A stretch of DNA of 54,716 bases, filler included, from Catajapyx aquilonaris (taxonomy: Eukaryota), in assembly GCA_000934665.2 (NCBI GenBank). It is 2 parts of 2 records of this genome, joined end to end, with 100 filler letters (N's around TTAATTAATTAA, not from the genome) between each part and the next. Parts side by side here need not be neighbours in the genome. Positions count along the whole stretch, not along the records: positions 1 to 27,312 come from KZ539280.1; 1 more part is not named here. One strand, 5' to 3'. Both the position numbers and the translations under genes were made by a program. A model generated the notes under the pieces. That model had not been told where the DNA came from. It made no database searches and saw nothing but the letters and a program-made list of their open reading frames with translations. Of the stretch, positions 23,268-47,800 are shown in pieces (within the stretch, counting starts at the first letter, position 1; every line of letters begins with the position of its first letter).

Positions 23268-24070
23268 CGGTTTTTGGCTGCGGCAGCTCGGTCCCGCTGT
23301 CGTCGATTCTTGAACCAGTTTCCGACTTGCGTGGGTGTTAGTCCGGTAGCCTGGGCCAGTTCTCTCTTCTTGGTCGGGTTGGGGTATGGGTCTTGCAAGT
23401 ACCACTCGCGCAGGAGGCTTCGGGTTCTCTCCTTGAAGCAGTGTGTCTTTTGCTCGCCGTCCCAGATGGTCCGCGGCAAGGGGAACTTCTTCCGGACGCG
23501 GTACTTGTCCACCGGGCCCAGGGGCCGCCCGCGGAGTTTCTCCGCCTCTTGATAGTGAGCTTCTAGCCACATGGCCTGCAGCTTGGCGTGCGATTCTTTG
23601 CCGAACTTGTGGTTCTCCAGGATGTGGTAGAGCTCCCGGAAGTTTCCGGAATGGAATGCGACCATGGAGCGTGCCCTCAGGACTGCCTCGCTTTTGTTCA
23701 ACTCGCCAATATTGGGATGGGCCACGGGCAAAGACCAGAGGAAACGGGCTAGCCGCTCGATGTCCCCGCTTTCTTCCAGTGTCTCGCATACAGCAGCTAC
23801 CTGCCCTACCGTGAAGTTGAGCGTCGGAAGGGCAAAAACCGGGCTTGGGACGGCAACTCCACCAGCTCCACCACCGCCGCCACCTCCGGATCCGGCCCCG
23901 GGACCGCCTCCGCCGCCTGCTCCACCGCCGCCGAGCCCTGCTGCTGCGGCTTGTGCTGCTGCTGCGGCCGCTGCGGCTGCGGCTGCCCCATGCGGCAACA
24001 TGCCTCCCATGATTGCAGCAGAGGCGGCCAGGCCCCCCATGGCGCCCAGGCCGCCCAGACCAAGGGCCAT
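23268..24070 (-). CDS. Six3/Optix: Six3/6 (Optix) homeobox transcription factor, exon 1 from the first AUG (possible upstream extension to 24838)
   Basis: SIX domain ([37 protein letters not shown]...) plus a homeodomain with the Six3/6-diagnostic QKTH tetrapeptide ([30 protein letters not shown]...[17 protein letters not shown]). Donor CG|GTAAGT at 23267. First in-frame ATG at 24070 ([13 protein letters not shown]). Confidence 0.97.
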
Positions 24071-25189
24071 CACCGCCAGACCTGCTTCAGTGTGGGGGTG
24101 CTGCTGAGAATGGTGGTGGTGGTGATTCGGGTGGTGCGGGCCAGTGGTGCTGTTGTGGTGTTGCTGCTGCTGTTGCAGTTGGTGGTGGTTCAGGTGGTGG
24201 TTTAGATGATTGTGAGGGTGATGTGGGTGGTGGTGGTGGTGGGCTGCTGCTGCGGCGGCCGCTGCGGCGACTGCCCCCAGACCTCCTAGCCCTCCTCCAG
24301 CAGCGGCTGCGGTGGCTGCAGCGGCGGCGGCTCCACCGGCCCACCACCACTCCCACTCGGCAGATGAGGACGGGGCCGCCGGTGTCCCTCTGTTGCTACC
24401 GATGCCCTTCAGCCTAATCTCCTTCCTGGCAGCCTCCTCCCCAGAAGGAGCTTCCCCACCTGCTACCTTCTCTGCAGCCGCACCACCTTCCTCCGCTTCA
24501 ATCACCGTTCTGGCTTCTAATTCTTCCGCCTGCTGTAAGTCGTTCTCGTCGTCCACTACGTCCACGTCCTCGTCTTCCGACACCGCTGCCGCTGCTGCCG
24601 CCGCCGCCGCGACGAAACCGCCCCTTCTCTTCCGCAGACGTGTCTTGTTGCTAATCAATGTCGTGGCACCCCAGCAGCGACCTGGTCCTTCCACCCTTCC
24701 GGTAATCTTTGGACGCCCGACCTCCACCCCAAGCACGGTCAGCACCCCCACTGTTGCTGCCGTCGCTGTATTCACTCTCACGCAAACAGAACCGGTACCC
24801 GCACGACAATCACCACCGTCCCTCTCCGTCTCCTTCCGTCAATGCCGTCACGACGTCTGCCATCTGAATACGCTGTCTGTGCAATGGAGAAACGGAACGG
24901 GCAAAAGTGCAGTACCGGTGTATCGTCCGGAGAAGCGATGCTGCGCTACCGACGATGAGGACGTCCCCCCGTCTTGTGTTGTGATGTTGTGTTGCCAACC
25001 ATCCACAGCAGAGGGCCGAAGGATGGGCTGTGGGGGTGTTGAGAGGGGGGGGGGGCAGGGAGTAGGAGGATGGCTATTAGCGGCGCGCAGTCTAAATGGA
25101 TGGGAGGAGTCTTATGGCGGGATAGGTGTCCGGGGCTTAGGCAGACACCGAGTGTCGGTGGCGCCCTAATCAAGGCTATCAGGCGAGCC

Positions 25190-25300
25190 ATTTGCCGGCC
25201 GGACGGAGCTCCTCATTGGTCCTACATCCAGAGCCCGCCAACCCGTCGCCATGGCAACCGCGTCAATCAAACCAAAGGCTGCCAATCAACGACGCCGACA
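25190..25300 (-). promoter_or_regulatory. Probable Six3 proximal promoter (CCAAT boxes, RFX X-box)
   Basis: GC-rich island with ATTGG (~25215), CCAAT (~25282) and palindromic GTCGCCATGGCAAC (25245-25258) just upstream of the Six3 leader. Confidence 0.5.
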
Positions 25301-26168
25301 ACAAAAGGCCCGGCCTCCCCCTCCCCTCCCCCCTCCGTACCACTCTCCCTTCCTGCCCATCCCTCCCATTCCCACTGCACCCGCCGCCACCTCTCCCTCG
25401 CTCCTTCCCGATGGATACGTGTCGACTCTCTGTTTGCCCAACAAAGAGCTCCCGGGCAATAATGCACCCAAACACCCCCTGCCTCCCCCGCACCATTCCA
25501 TCCTCTCCGCATGATGGGTCTGTGACTCCTGCCATTTTGGGGGGTCCTTCCCAGGCCTGGATGCCTGGCATAGGATTTTAGTAGAGGGTGCTGAATAAGT
25601 GTAATGAATGATTTTTATTTTTGCTAAATACGTAGTTACGCTATAGCGTAATACTCTCGTAGTTGTAAGTACCACGTTTACGTATCCTCCAGGTTCATAC
25701 CGTACAGTACGTATAGTGGTTACCCCTGTCATGTAGGCGTTCAGTAAGACAATAGAAGCTGATAGGTTATCTACCGTCCAGGATAGGTATGTGTTCCTCT
25801 TCACTGGGGGAGTCTTTATAGTATAGTACAATGGAAAAATATTTTGCAGTTACCGGTACGGATTTTTATGTGTTTCAGTTAATTGCGAGCCACTCTGAAA
25901 CCTATTCGATGCCTCCTGAGAGTTTTTACCGTATAATAACTTTGTTGGTATAGAGAGGATCGGAAAATGATATCAAACCGCTTAAAATATAGGAGTTGTG
26001 TAAGTAATGTATAAGTTAATAGAAGGCACAGCTTGTTTGAAGGAGAGCTTCATATAACTTGAAAAAGTTTATTTTTTGAGGATATTAAATTTCCGATATA
26101 TGCTGCCGGCTAGTTTATGCCTTTCATGTAGTAGCGTATCATATGCATTTTCGTAGAAGACACTAATG

Positions 26169-27679: not shown

Positions 27680-28870
27680 CGATTCAAAACGTGTGGTTCG
27701 AACGCGATCCAGACGTGGTCGAAACGCGATCCAGACGTGGTCGAAAGGCTGTCGAGGCGTGATTCGAATGCGATCAAAACTTGGTCCAGAAGCGATCGAG
27801 ACTACGTATTCGTGCGGTTCAGTCGTGGTCGAGACGCGATCGAGACGTGGTCGAGACTCGGTTCAGTTGCAATCAAAATACTTGCTAGAGACGCGATCAA
27901 AACTTGGTGGAGACGCGATCGAGACGTGGTTCAGTCGTGGTCGAGATGCGGTTCAGACGCGATCAAAACTATTGGTGGAGATGCAATCGAGACGTGATTC
28001 AATCGTGGTCGAGACGCGGTTCAGACGCGATCAAAACTTGGTGAAGACGCGATCGACACGTGGTTCAGATGTGGTCGAGACGCGGTTCAGACGCGATCAA
28101 AACTTGGTGGAGACGCGATCGAGACGTGGTTCGGTCGTGGTCGAGACGCGGTTCAGATGCGATCAAAATACTTGGTGGAGACGCGATCGAGACGTGGTTC
28201 AGTCGTGGTTGAGACGCGATCAAAACTTGGTGGAGTCGCGATCGAGACGTACGTGGTTCAGACGTGGTCGAGGAGACTCCGGTTCAGATGTCGCGACAGG
28301 TCGCGATGCGACCAAAACAGGGTCGACACGCGATCCAGACGTGGTCGCGCGATGCCGTCGCGATGCGATCAACGTGATTCGAATGCGATCAAAACATGGT
28401 CAAGAGCTCAAGACGCGATCTAGACGTCGTGCTGGTTCAGACGTAGTCGCGATACGATCAGAACATGGTCGAGACGCGGTTCAGACGGTGGTCGATATGC
28501 AATCAAGACGTGGTCGAAACGCTGTCGAGACGTGTGATATTCGAATGCTATCAAAATAAGACGGTATGGAGACGTGTGGTTCAGATGTGGTCGAAACGTG
28601 ATTCGAATGCGATCAAAACATGGTCTCAAGACGCGATCGAGATGCGGTTCAGATGTGGTCGAGATGCGATCATCAATACCAAGTAGAGCTAATTAGCTCT
28701 TGTCAATACACATGGTCGAAACACGGTCGGGACGTAGTGGTTCGAAAGTGATCGAAGCGAGGTGCGATCAAAATGTGGCCAAAACGCGATCGAGGTGCGG
28801 TTCAGACGTGGTCGAGACGTGGCTCGGACGTGCTCGAGACGCGCGGCCAGACGCGATCTAGATGCGGTCG
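27680..28870. repeat. CpG-rich tandem array of 11-bp monomers in a ~66-bp higher-order unit
   Basis: Core unit gagacgcgatc-gagacgtggtt-cagtcgtggtc-gagacgcggtt-cagacgcgatc-aaaacttggtg, most regular at ~27880-28240 and degenerating outward. Confidence 0.92.
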
Positions 28871-31174: not shown

Positions 31175-32704
31175 TTAACGCTGTTGTTGCTGGGCGCTCT
31201 TAGCGATTTGTCCTTTGAGAACGAGGATGCTCTGCCTTTGCTCTGGCGGAAGCATCGCGATCTGCTCGTCGCTCAGCTGCAGAACTTGCATGATTAGAGC
31301 GGCTTTCTCCTGGTCGCTTGCTCCGGGTCCTGCACCTGCCACAGCCGCAGCTGTTCCTGGAGACACGCCACCGACTCCGGAGGACATGCTGCTTCGATTT
31401 ATGTGCGGAGGGATTGCGCCGCGACCGGACACCATTGGCGGCATCGAGCCGGTTCTTGGGTCGACCCGTTCAAAGTGCTGGCTCGGGGGCGGTCCAGGCG
31501 GTTGAGATGGCTGTGATGGTGGCCCACGCATATCCCTATCCCTGAAGCGGGGGTCTCGCAGATCAAAGTCGGATGGCGGCGGTCCTTGTGGTCTGTCCCA
31601 TGTTGGGGGAGGACCAGGCGGTGGTCCACGGAGATCCTGGTCCAGGTTGCCTCGTCTTGGATCCATCTGTCTGAGGTCCATGTCGTGCCCGAAGTGGTGC
31701 GGCGGAGGGTGGTGAGGAGGCGGTGGATGGTGGTGGTGTTGACTCATGAAATCACGAGACGGAGCAGACACAGGGGGCGGTGGAGCCTGGGAATGAGGAG
31801 GGGGTTCAGAACGGGCTGGGAGGAATGGGGCGGCTGTACTTGCAGGGGAAAAGGCTGGCTGGGAGGAGGTCGGCTGAGGTAGGATCTGCGGGGCAGACAC
31901 AGGAGCAGGCACGGGGGCAGGCACAGGGGCCGGGACAGGAGCAGGCGGCGGTGGCGGCGGCATGCTTGAAGTTGATGGAACGTCCTTCAGATGAAGAGGC
32001 GTCGGAGCCACATTTGCTTTGCTCAACATGGTCTGAAATTGTCATGTCAATGTTAACATTGCAACCAGTTATTAATCAAAACCTGCTTACCACAGCCGTC
32101 TGCGGATCAACAATCCTCATGACAACCTGCGCCTGCAGTAGTGCATACGCAAGCTGCGGATTCTGCAGAAGCATGGTCCGTGCTTCGCTTGGATTGTTCT
32201 GTATGCACAGCTTCATCTGCTTCATAAGCTCAAACATCTGCTCCGGCGGCAAGGAAGCCACCGCTTTGCTTATCGCTTCCGGTGCCTTCTCCGGCTCCAC
32301 CTGTTCGCCATACGGATTCTCCACAACCGGACCCTGCAGCAGACTCTGCATCTCCATCCGCGACTTCTCCGTACAAGCATTATCCACCCGAAGTGTCCTC
32401 CCGCCGATCTCATACCCGTTCAGGTTCCGCATCGCGCTCAATGCCGTCTCCTGGTCCTTATACTCGCAGAACCCATATCCTTTAGGCTTCCCAGTCTCCC
32501 GGTCATACACCAGCTTGAAGCTCAGCACCGGCCCAACCTCACAGAAGATTTCCTTCAACTTCTCCTCAGTCGCTTCATACGGAATGTTCCCAACTAGAAA
32601 ATGAAACCATGTTAAGTACACCCCCTCATACATTTCATTGGACCCTACAAATCCTTACCGAACACTGATCGCATAGACTTGTCTATCAAGTTCTGGTCCG
32701 ACAT
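31175..32704 (-). CDS. CSTF2: Cleavage stimulation factor 64 kDa subunit, 3 exons, ~468 aa
   Basis: Exons 32704-32659, 32593-32091, 32032-31175. RRM (RSVFVGNIPYEATEEKLKEIF...KPKGYGFCEY), hinge (PEQMFELMKQMKLCIQNNP...NPQLAYALLQAQVVM) and C-terminal DQEKAALIMQVLQLSDEQIAMLPPEQRQSILVLK. Confidence 0.97.
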
Positions 32705-34091: not shown

Positions 34092-34879
34092 ATGCTGAGC
34101 ATAACGCGAGTTAATCATGTACTGGTCAGGTATGTACAAACAATTAATCAGTTAACATTGTACTAAGACAGGTAACATATTGCAGATGTGCTGTACCGGC
34201 AATATCATCCATTGCGACCAGTCGCACCAAGCACACTTTGCCCGACCTGCCGTACGACTACAACGCGCTTGAGCCCACAATAAGCGCTGAGATAATGAAG
34301 CTCCACCACTCCAAGCATCACGCTACGTACGTTGCCAACCTGAACGTGGCGGAGGAGAAGCTGGCCGAAGCGCAGGCCAAAAACTGCGCCAAGACCATCA
34401 TCTCGCTTGGGCCGGCCCTCAGGTTCAACGGAGGCGGACACATCAACCACTCCATCTTCTGGCAGAACCTGACTCCCGGAGGAGGTGGGGAGCCATCGGG
34501 GGAGCTGATGGAGGCCATCAAGAGGGACTTTGGAAGCTTCGAGGCTTTCAAGACCAAGCTGAGCGGAACGGCCGTGGGCGTACAGGGGTCAGGATGGGCC
34601 TGGCTCGGCTACTGCAAGGACAGCAAGAGGCTGCAGGTCGTCGGCTGCCCAAATCAGGACCCGCTTGAGCCCACCACTGGTACGATGCAGCGATACGCAT
34701 CTCATAACATGTACTGAGCATTTAATGTTCCAGGCCTCGTCCCGCTATTCGGCATCGACGTGTGGGAGCACGCTTACTACCTGCAGTACAAGAACGTGCG
34801 CCCAGACTACGTTAAGGCCATATACAACGTCGCCAACTGGAAGGACGTCGCCGAGCGTCTCAAGAAAGCCCAAGGATGA
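34092..34879 (+). CDS. SOD2: Mitochondrial Mn superoxide dismutase, 3 exons, ~225 aa
   Basis: Exons 34092-34129, 34186-34679, 34734-34879. Transit-like N-terminus, [51 protein letters not shown] at ~35031. Confidence 0.98.
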
Positions 34880-44800: not shown

Positions 44801-47800
44801 AGCCTCACATTAATACAATGACAGCCAAGCTATCACAATAAACCAAGTCATGCATGTAAAATGTGACACCACACTGAGAGAGACTTTGAAGTGCAAAAAA
44901 CATTCCACACGTGCTCAGAAGAATGTCGTTGCCACTTTTCTTGCTTCATTTCCTCAATGTTGAAATATTCCAAAGTAATACATAGACATGTTTGCAGAGT
45001 ACAATTTGCACTAATCTTAACCCGCTGGATGACTGACACAACTATTTGTGAGAATCACATGTGCCTAAAGCAAGTGTCATCCACCAGATCTTCAACCCAT
45101 ATATCTCTAGTTCCATCATTTATCTTTTGCGGCGCTTATGATCAAAGTTGTACACCAAATAAAATTCAATATTCCAGGAGCTGGATTCAAACAAATCCGT
45201 AATTACTTGCAACATTTTCTTTCCATAGTTCCAGCTCTGAAACATTGCTAACTAATGACATTCAATTTGTTCACGCTTTGTGTCCGTGTGTGAATCCAGC
45301 CCTAGGATAATTGCAAGTATTTGCCTGCACCAAGTATGACTTTCTTTCCAATAAAAAAACAGTGCAAAAAACACATACAATGCACACATTGCAGTTCGAT
45401 TGGAACAGAAGTGCCGTATGATCCATAGAGAACACGTTATGTGTGAAGACACAATTACCACAAAAGAAAACTATGCTTCATGTCCTCAATTAGGCTAATT
45501 AATATCTAGATAAATATTCATACACTTGAAATTAAAATTATCATATTATGCAGAATAGGCTTATAAACGACATTTCAAATACAAAAGCTACTTCTACATT
45601 ATGAGCACCTTCTAAACAGATGCTCAAGTTACTTGTACATTTTTTTTAAAAAAATAAAGAGCTGAAAGTAAGATAAAAAGAAAAGAAAATAATGTGTCAT
45701 TATGAGTAATTGTCATACTTACAGTGATGGTCATCTTCAAAGCTCAAAGTCCTTTGGAAGTGAATGAATAGTCCACTTTCAATGGCGCGCTTTTTGTTCT
45801 TAAGTAGAGGCAAACAAATCTCTTGGGGCTCCATGCAGAGTTGGACACTCCCCCCACCCCAACCCGAAAAGGTTCTCTGTCTGTCTCAGTCTGTCGGCCC
45901 TCTTAATATCCGCTCGCAATGTTCAGTTGCTCTCTCTCTCTCCCTCTCTCTCTCTCTCGCTTGTGTGGTGTGGCCAATGCATAGAAAGTTCTAAACCCAA
46001 AAAGTGCCATTCCAGGAAATGTTCAGCTTGTACTAAATAAACCAAGACCCACGCTGGTACCGAAAAGTTCACTCAGGACACTCCCATTAGGTTTTTCTCG
46101 TCCCCTCTCAATAGTGCATGTTGGGAGTCCCATATAAAGTTTACAAGAGTGAACGGCATATAAAGGGTGCCTATGGGGGGGTGCAGGGGGTGGGGACAGC
46201 GGGGACAAAAGTTACCTTCCAAGTTCCAAAAAATCCCTTCCCAATCCCCGAGACTAGTTCTGTGAGAAGAATTATAGTCACAACTGGAAAGAATCCCTGA
46301 GGGAAGCAGCATTTTTTTGCTCTCTTTGCACCTGTCTGGGGTGAACTTCCAGGCACTGAGTTCGTTCTGGGTCTCCTCCATCTTGGCCTTGCTATCGTCC
46401 ACCTCCTTCTTCATGCGCTGCATCATCAGGTTGACTGCAGGGTCTAGCAGGGACGACCTGAGGGCCTGGGCTCCCGGCGCCTGGGCAGCCTTCAGCTCGT
46501 TGATCTGGTTCTGGAAATGCACAAACAAAAAGAGGGAACCAGTTTGGAAACTGAACTTTAAGAAGCACATCAAACATCTGGATCCTGCTGTGAGAAAGTC
46601 AGTTAACCTACTACACATCCAAGAGCACATTAGTGTTATTCAAGTAGATTGAAAGCGCGCCACTGTCTCAAATATTAAAAATTAAATTGCATTTTTAAAA
46701 CACACATGATCTTCATTATGGTGATGCAAGTCCAGCATTTTTAGATCGCTTCTTCCGAACTACTGTCTTCATTTTCGAAACTTTTCCAGAGTACAAAAAT
46801 TAATTCTTGGATATCCAAAAAATTGCAAGAAAACCGCCTTCCCACAGCAGGATCCACTTCAGGCGTGACACTCACGGCATAGTCCTGCATCTCCTGTTCT
46901 TTTGTGGTGAGCCGCATGACTAGAACGTTTTCCCTCCGTGTAGCTTCCAGCTGTTGCTGCCTCAGCTTCTCTTCCGGTTCCCTCAAGCTTGCCAGCTCAG
47001 CTGGAGAAAAATGATTTTTCATGAGGAATGATTAGTCAGACTGTACAACCAAGCAAAAAGCAACATGACAATACGAGATAATAACTCAAGCAGTAAATTA
47101 AAGCATAAGTACCACACTCGGAGATGGACAAACATCACCAGGCAGTGAATAAGTTGTCTCACGTCTAGCAGAATTGTTTGCTTTTTTTCCGACATACTGT
47201 TTTTCTACCAAAATCTCTCATTTCATGGTTAAATAAGCCGTCTCAAAGGTCCCTCACACCCAGTATATAGGAATCTAGGAATATAGGAAGATAGGAAATC
47301 TAGGAAATACATGTCACATCCACTTTGTGTTCATATGTTGAACCAATCTTCAGAGGATTGTAACTCCCAAAAAGGTAACATTCCTATAATAAAATATTCC
47401 TCTACTCAGAGCCATGGCCAACTATTGATGAGGAAAGAACCTCAATGTCATAACACTACTTGAAACAGCTCAATAATGGTCAAAACATGCGATGATACTC
47501 ATCAAATAAACATGGAGTGGCTCTGCAGGTTTCAATATTATTGTCACCTTGTCACTCGAACTGGTTCACATTCAATAGGGGCTTTTACACATTTTAAAAC
47601 TTTTTCATGTATTTATTGCCTAGTACATTCTACTCCTCCAAGTTTGCAAGTGTACTACATTAATCAATAATCGCAAGCGCAAAAATTATTCCCATATTGT
47701 CTAATAGTTGCATTGTGATAAAGCTCCATATTCAGACAACCCATCACAATGTAACAATTTTGCCTTAAAAAGTTTCGAGTCCCTGTAGTGTAGACGATGC

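Follow-up and report, generated by a model that had tools for sequence, protein, structure and literature searches.

Extensions that begin at a non-AUG codon ahead of an annotated AUG form a known class of N-terminal additions to proteins. In Ivanov et al. 2011 (PMC3105428), 21 extensions without out-of-frame AUGs are described as giving several isoforms, and FlyBase records 27 Drosophila genes with non-AUG starts (e.g. Fmr1, Eip74EF and ewg), most of them postulated from a missing AUG together with conservation (PMC4528330). Here we analyze a stretch of 54,716 nucleotides from Catajapyx aquilonaris (GenBank assembly GCA_000934665.2; hereafter the window), in which the reading frame of a Six3/Optix homeobox gene continues for 256 codons upstream of its conserved initiation codon with neither a stop codon nor an ATG. 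This arm is, or very recently was, in all likelihood read as protein, and a start at a near-cognate codon appears to be the single most likely way into it, at a probability of about one in three.

The arm shares with the known non-AUG extensions an in-frame position upstream of an annotated AUG, the absence of stops and AUGs, a coding signature and near-cognate codons in good context. As in those cases, there is no intervening out-of-frame AUG, so that leaky scanning could give two isoforms that coincide at their C-termini. The known extensions rest on cross-species conservation, and several also on Western blots or ribosome profiling, whereas the searches described below found no relative of the window extension; at 208–253 codons it is also long. 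Conserved non-AUG N-terminal extensions with leaky scanning are the closest known kind, and the arm is a candidate member of that class. Some likeness extends to other systems as well. Vertebrate genes of the C/EBP type carry a short AUG upstream open reading frame (uORF) ahead of alternative in-frame starts on one mRNA, an arrangement that resembles the window. Antizyme joins an AUG-initiated ORF1 that ends in UGA to an AUG-less ORF2 in the +1 frame, as is also the case here, although neither a match to the antizyme shift site nor a stimulatory structure was found in the window. The main text of Ivanov et al. mentions neither SIX3 nor SIX6 (PMC3105428; the supplements lay outside the search), Optix is absent from FlyBase Table S3 (PMC4528330), and a literature search yielded no paper that, judged by title or abstract, was relevant to start-codon choice or N-terminal extension in Six3/Optix.

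A Six3/Optix gene with an open, ATG-free frame ahead of its start

In animals, Six3/Optix establishes the anterior head, brain and eye, and in butterflies it also patterns the wings; its protein is usually taken to start at a short conserved arm, MALGLG. The window consists of two record parts joined by 100 filler N, which need not adjoin in the genome; positions 1–27,312 are from KZ539280.1. Its minus strand contains a Six3/Optix exon; the frame that encodes the SIX domain and homeodomain runs without a stop from 24838 to a splice donor after 23268. The canonical part of this exon (23268–24070, minus strand) encodes a Gly/Ala-rich arm, the SIX domain and the homeodomain, and is followed by a gtaagt donor from 23267; its identity to annotated arthropod Six3/Six6/Optix proteins is 94–95%. 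Pfam models match the window protein (P0001) at residues 342–456 (SIX1_SD, 157.1 bits against a cut-off of 27.4) and 466–517 (Homeodomain, 46.7 bits against 22.9), and the homeodomain opens with QKTH, a Six3/6-type mark. A homologue search returned 1542 proteins at E ≤ 0.001; the best 120 are 85–95% identical over the SIX and homeodomain part and are called SIX3, SIX6 or Optix wherever they are named. The donor lies immediately after AAAKNR, the same place as in four other Six3 loci (L002, L004, L008 and L009). The start of the next exon (RLQQQQMQSQ..., SLSLGANSPPPP) was located by tblastn with the C-terminal parts of homologues at 1–293 on the minus strand (best E 3e-13); it continues beyond the window, its acceptor (ttcattttctattggag, followed by G) is T-rich, and the intron is ~23 kb long. 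By its domains, its relatives, its N-terminal motif and its intron, the gene is a Six3/Six6 (Optix) class SIX homeobox gene. Drosophila Optix, as isoform Optix-PC, appears in FlyBase as a case of stop-codon readthrough, in which five residues are added beyond a UGA (PMC4528330, supplementary file 9); the window ends before the Six3 stop codon.

The conserved initiation codon (24068–24070, minus strand) opens MALGLGG... and lies in a strong context, gcggtgATGg. Ahead of it the frame stays open for 256 codons (24838–24071, minus strand), to an in-frame TGA at 24841–24839 that is itself preceded by another at 24850–24848. An earlier note, made from the sequence by eye, had described both this open frame and the lack of any minus-strand ATG, in any frame, between 24863 and 24070, and our analysis agrees with it on each count. 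At 793 nt, the resulting ATG gap surpasses all others among the 1136 that separate the window's 1137 minus-strand ATGs, the mean gap being 47.8 nt; the next-longest fall in a 22-nt satellite (736 nt) and across a run of N (465 nt). The note's estimate of a dozen expected ATGs holds for uniform base composition and is too high for this sequence, since its actual composition gives 8.9 and dinucleotide shuffling gives 7.5. None of 2000 dinucleotide shuffles of the stretch lacked ATG. Shuffles without an in-frame stop were likewise rare (5/5000, with a mean of 6.0 stops), and none of the 5000 lacked both stops and ATGs.

The predicted peptide contains the features that the note had read from it: a basic patch (RLRKRR), poly-Ala runs, an acidic block, a WEWWW motif and a His/Gln tract, the last encoded by mixed codons (CAC 21, CAT 3, CAA 3 and CAG 7). 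No Pfam domain scored above its cut-off within the extension. The opposite strand is also stop-free in one frame across the extension and its upstream flank (24222–25169, plus strand, 315 codons). We set this open reading frame aside as a candidate gene, as it has no continuity with any known gene and probably just mirrors a coding frame of the G-first (RNY-like) kind together with a G-rich flank.

Several properties of the stretch support the note's statement that the leader reads like protein in the Six3 frame. Stops are absent specifically from that frame (0/256 codons); the other two minus-strand frames contain 12 and 6, and the plus-strand frames 5, 5 and 3. Base usage depends strongly on codon position, G making up 0.50 and T 0.07 of first positions. 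We compared bases with codon positions by chi-square in blocks of 150 nt. The three blocks upstream of 24838 are aperiodic (p=0.42, 0.63 and 0.72), and all five blocks of the extension are periodic (p=0.018, 0.029, 0.0043, 2.5e-9 and 2e-11); accepted coding blocks range from 5e-7 to 0.3 in the same test. Among controls, p<0.03 was reached by 5/145 intron blocks and 2/39 upstream blocks, and by no run of three consecutive blocks (0/143). The coding signal therefore starts near the 5' end of the open frame. Tandem Repeats Finder reported no array within the extension, and the Ala, His and Gln runs differ at their third codon positions, so these runs are not DNA microsatellites. We thus consider it very likely that the Six3 frame of the extension is translated into protein, or was until very recently. 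The product would be a lineage-specific, disordered N-terminal arm of ~210–250 residues.

Six3 starts and N-terminal arms in other arthropods

Of the best 120 homologues, 46 carry a MALGLG-type motif in their N-terminal arm, and in 25 of these 120 it forms the first residues of the protein. Proteins that start at the MALGLG Met come from spiders, a scorpion, beetles, a cricket, a bug, a springtail and brine shrimp, among others. Because these 25 homologues begin exactly at the motif's Met, and do so across arthropods, comparison of the sequences identifies ATG 24070 as the ancestral arthropod Six3 start.

In other arthropods this start has come to lie inside the protein. Mite and termite Six3 genes (Halotydeus destructor P0027, Cryptotermes secundus P0026 and the transcript-like locus L003) resemble the window in having coding sequence upstream of M[AT]ALG in the same exon. 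Their arms open with an in-frame AUG, 48–55 codons upstream of the motif in the termite-like proteins and followed by MEDASSR-type arms at the start in the mite-like proteins and L003, whereas the window arm has no such codon. Springtail proteins carry 100–180 conserved residues ahead of MALGLG. In springtail Six3 (Folsomia candida P0102, Allacma fusca P0019 and the springtail-like loci L004 and L043), MALGLG is internal and a His-rich, AUG-poor coding stretch lies directly upstream in the exon, much as in the window. The in-frame stretch ahead of MALGLG amounts to 92 codons without an ATG in L004 and to 78 codons with one ATG in L043. In both (L004, 700–1270; L043, 1–460), a canonical acceptor stands directly before the conserved GTQSPP and an upstream exon, which contains the AUG, ends in ...SPxS/gtaag 110–210 nt away; P0102, the RefSeq protein of Folsomia candida, spans that junction. 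As judged from these sequences, the AUG-free signature of L004 and L043 is the product of an upstream AUG exon. The window, by contrast, has no comparable acceptor inside the frame.

Two Six3 loci in metagenome genomic sequence come closer to the window. In L008 (152–808), an AUG-less in-frame arm of 219 codons precedes the Met of MTALGLG, with a probability of 0.0007 of containing no stop by chance and 1 ATG against 12.9 expected. There is no ATG in nt 1–803 of L008, and a nearby out-of-frame AUG therefore cannot explain its arm. L009 (3263–3814) has an AUG-less arm of 184 codons before the same Met; its stop-free frame is weaker evidence (P ~0.11). Both have an intron after AAAKNR, both arms are periodic, and their proximal parts align with each other and with P0033 despite opposite base composition. 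The ancestral Six3 start has thus become internal several times: behind an AUG in the same exon in mites and termites, behind an upstream exon in springtails, and behind AUG-less arms in the window, L008 and L009.

Relatives of the extension itself were sought by several routes. Word-index searches at E ≤ 0.001 and 0.01, in which residues 1–330 of P0001 and the sequence P0002 served as queries, yielded no homologue of the extension; they scored the 8000 top word-sharing candidates, which were probably dominated by low-complexity sequence. HMMER with residues 1–345 against 1.84 billion representative proteins gave three matches (E 1.5e-4 to 8e-4), all to unrelated low-complexity proteins, which we rejected. 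A metagenome scan recovered 43 Six3-like loci, none of them matching the query before residue 314, and the ESM Atlas gave no usable match to the extension. When the window protein was compared with the springtail arms (P0015 and P0102) by BLASTP, no significant match emerged outside the SIX region. A His/Leu/Asn pattern of the HLNH type recurs in the window and springtail arms, as a visual hint only.

Routes of entry into the arm

Because the arm as assembled contains no AUG, a start at a near-cognate codon (GTG, ACG or CTG) combined with leaky scanning is what we favor as the entry, at the odds of roughly one in three given above and with an assembly indel close behind. The extension contains 29 in-frame near-cognate codons, 12 of which have a purine at -3 and G at +4. 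A cluster near its 5' end (24694–24829, minus strand) offers that context at ACG 24829, ACG 24763, GTG 24751, GTG 24727 and GTG 24694, and CTG 24742 is preceded by G at position -3; no single codon is clearly the best. Two GTG codons that the earlier note had named, at 24751 (aca GTG g) and at 24781, are indeed in frame. Under this proposal, some scanning ribosomes would start at one or more near-cognates near the 5' end of the arm, the best contexts being those of ACG 24763, GTG 24751, GTG 24727 and GTG 24694, with CTG 24742 as a further candidate. Other ribosomes would meet no AUG in any frame and would leak through to the strong ancestral AUG at 24070, and a single mRNA would then yield a rare long Six3 together with the usual short one. 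We infer from the sequence that the stretch lies within the mature mRNA, that it is translated, and where in the arm the start would fall.

A number of observations weigh against this proposal. Near-cognate codons need not work: according to FlyBase, the Drosophila y1 allele, in which AUG is changed to CUG, is null (PMC4528330). The first ~60 codons of the extension are less protein-like than the remainder, and no search route found a relative of the extension. The ATG gap, too, says less about scanning than its length suggests. Upkeep of an AUG-free leader is a hallmark of leaky scanning, and codon shuffling of the extension, which predicts 5.1 ATGs, would make their absence improbable (P(0)=0.002). 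When the amino-acid sequence is kept and synonymous codons are resampled, however, only 2.0–2.6 out-of-frame ATGs are expected, with P(0)=0.05–0.10; not one of the seven NAT codons has a G after it. In a coding stretch, a Met-free, low-complexity sequence and codons that end in C would account for most of the ATG desert, and selection for an AUG-free leader is for that reason only weakly suggested.

The remaining evidence against a near-cognate entry is best considered with the alternatives that it favors, the most probable of which centers on a short ORF at the upstream edge of the desert. This uORF, which the earlier note had also recognized, has 17 codons (24810–24863, minus strand; context attcagATGg) and ends in a UGA 29 nt inside the extension frame, the extension lying in its +1 frame. 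Its ATG, at 24863, bounds the desert on the upstream side and is a single base off the Six3 frame, and for 26 nt (24838–24813) the two frames are open together. The region's best acceptor-like site (24877–24902, minus strand; a candidate with pyrimidine fraction 0.78, cacag/ACAGCG) lies 13 nt upstream of this ATG, which is thus placed where start codons are often found. Within 24838–24813, an assembly error of one base or a real frameshift of very recent date could therefore have separated a true start at 24863 from the rest of its protein, which we hold to be less than probable. The frame-0 periodicity is already present in the first block (24838–24689), so that the coding signal reaches the overlap; 11 of the 16 codons of the short ORF are G-first, as in the extension; and the draft assembly includes runs of N as well as single ambiguous bases. 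The error would, however, have to fall in one 26-nt stretch without a long homopolymer (the longest run is GGG), the G-first bias over 16 codons is not significant alone (an estimated p of about 0.08 per frame), and an indel fails to account for L008, where the same kind of AUG-less arm has no ATG in the 803 nt before the Met. Even with a start at 24863, the ATG-free stretch would still allow leaky scanning from this AUG, whose context is weak (C at -3), to 24070. The same geometry, an AUG ORF that ends in UGA and a long AUG-less ORF in its +1 frame, would fit an antizyme-type programmed frameshift, in which ribosomes start at AUG 24863 and shift into the Six3 frame at or before the UGA (UGG-UGA-U). 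L009 offers a parallel, as its nearest upstream AUG ORF (58 codons) ends in a UGA 5 nt inside the arm and has the same +1 relation to it. This explanation is nonetheless very improbable: a 257-nt segment (24876–24620) shows no stimulatory structure (z=0.71; 151/200 shuffles fold at least as well), the peptide encoded upstream in L009 recurs neither in the other loci nor in the window, L008 has no upstream AUG at all, and chance alone would produce this geometry in a sizeable share of cases. Moreover, the antizyme codon before the stop is UCC, and the codon in the window differs.

Two other explanations place the start of the protein elsewhere. An upstream exon with its own AUG might be spliced in at an acceptor just downstream of the TGA at 24841–24839, by analogy with L004 and L043, where exactly this makes the AUG-free signature. 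Since the gene for CstF-64 lies upstream on the same strand at 31178–32654, any unseen Six3 5' exon would fall within ~6 kb (24.9–31.1 kb). Candidate acceptors exist at 24777, 24775 and 24766; these are weak (pyrimidine fraction 0.61, in a G-rich context), whereas the real acceptor of the gene is T-rich. The sequence upstream of them has 57–64% G+C as far as ~25550, against 31–35% in the known intron beside the exon, no block upstream of 24838 is periodic, and two in-frame stops separate the only strong acceptor-like site (24877) from the open frame. A tblastn search of the window with homologue N-terminal arms of more than 25 residues returned chance-level matches only and no upstream exon, and we regard this route as improbable. 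Similarly doubtful, to our mind, is the view that the stretch is a 5' untranslated leader, open by chance or composition, or a recently abandoned arm, and that only the short MALGLG protein is made; the uORFs at 24863 and 25002 and the AUG-free leader would then only tune translation. The second of these uORFs (24946–25002, minus strand; 18 codons, context ctgtggATGg) is relevant only if the transcription start site lies upstream of 25002. That the MALGLG Met is the annotated start in 25 of the best 120 homologues is in keeping with such a leader, as is the lack of an extension homologue among 5.8 billion clustered and 1.84 billion representative proteins or in metagenome contigs. Chance stop-free stretches of 170 and 187 codons occur in intron and upstream DNA of the window, and with very many windows surveyed a 1-in-1000 event will appear; an open frame by itself is therefore insufficient. 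Chance does not, on the other hand, give coding-type periodicity in five consecutive blocks, nor third-position variation in homopolymer runs, nor a lack of stops specific to one frame, and a relic would have to be very young to have neither stop nor ATG in 768 nt.

Near-cognate initiation may extend beyond this species. We tentatively propose, as an idea that we ourselves rate as unlikely, that arthropod Six3/Optix genes recurrently carry long AUG-less arms (256 codons in the window, 219 in L008 and 184 in L009) that are read from a near-cognate start, with a translationally set mix of long and short isoforms as the result. The AUG uORF that ends in UGA just inside the arm, with the arm in its +1 frame, in the window as in L009, could belong to this control, or even serve a frameshift entry.

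Surroundings of the gene and implications

Farther upstream, within a G+C-rich block (~24870–25550), lies a near-palindrome, GTTGCCATGGCGAC (25245–25258, minus strand), with a CCAAT box ~30 nt downstream (25215–25219). The palindrome resembles an RFX X-box, and the two may be promoter elements. The ATG within the palindrome shares the Six3 frame, though a stop ends its ORF after 28 codons. A satellite (27693–28534) of 22-nt units, with higher-order periods of 66 and 134, lies in the interval from Six3 to the next gene and contains a long repetitive plus-strand ORF without a Pfam match. Pfam identifies three neighboring genes: the CstF-64 gene mentioned above (minus strand), with its RRM, hinge and C-terminal domains, a Mn/Fe superoxide dismutase (34148–34714, plus strand) and a WTAP/Fl(2)d-type protein (46076–46639, minus strand).

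Should the cause of the AUG-less arm be a one-base assembly error, the finding would be an ordinary one, a gene model to correct. If instead the arm is entered at a near-cognate codon, Catajapyx would make a longer Six3 isoform, with an acidic block, a basic patch and His/Gln tracts, that is set by start-codon choice, and this would constitute a regulatory layer missed by gene models, by AUG-directed knock-outs and by antibody data. An important developmental gene would then join the known non-AUG class, with hints of recurrence in other arthropods. More generally, and whatever the entry, the ancestral start of Six3 is repeatedly internal, and many Six3 gene models may be truncated or over-extended.

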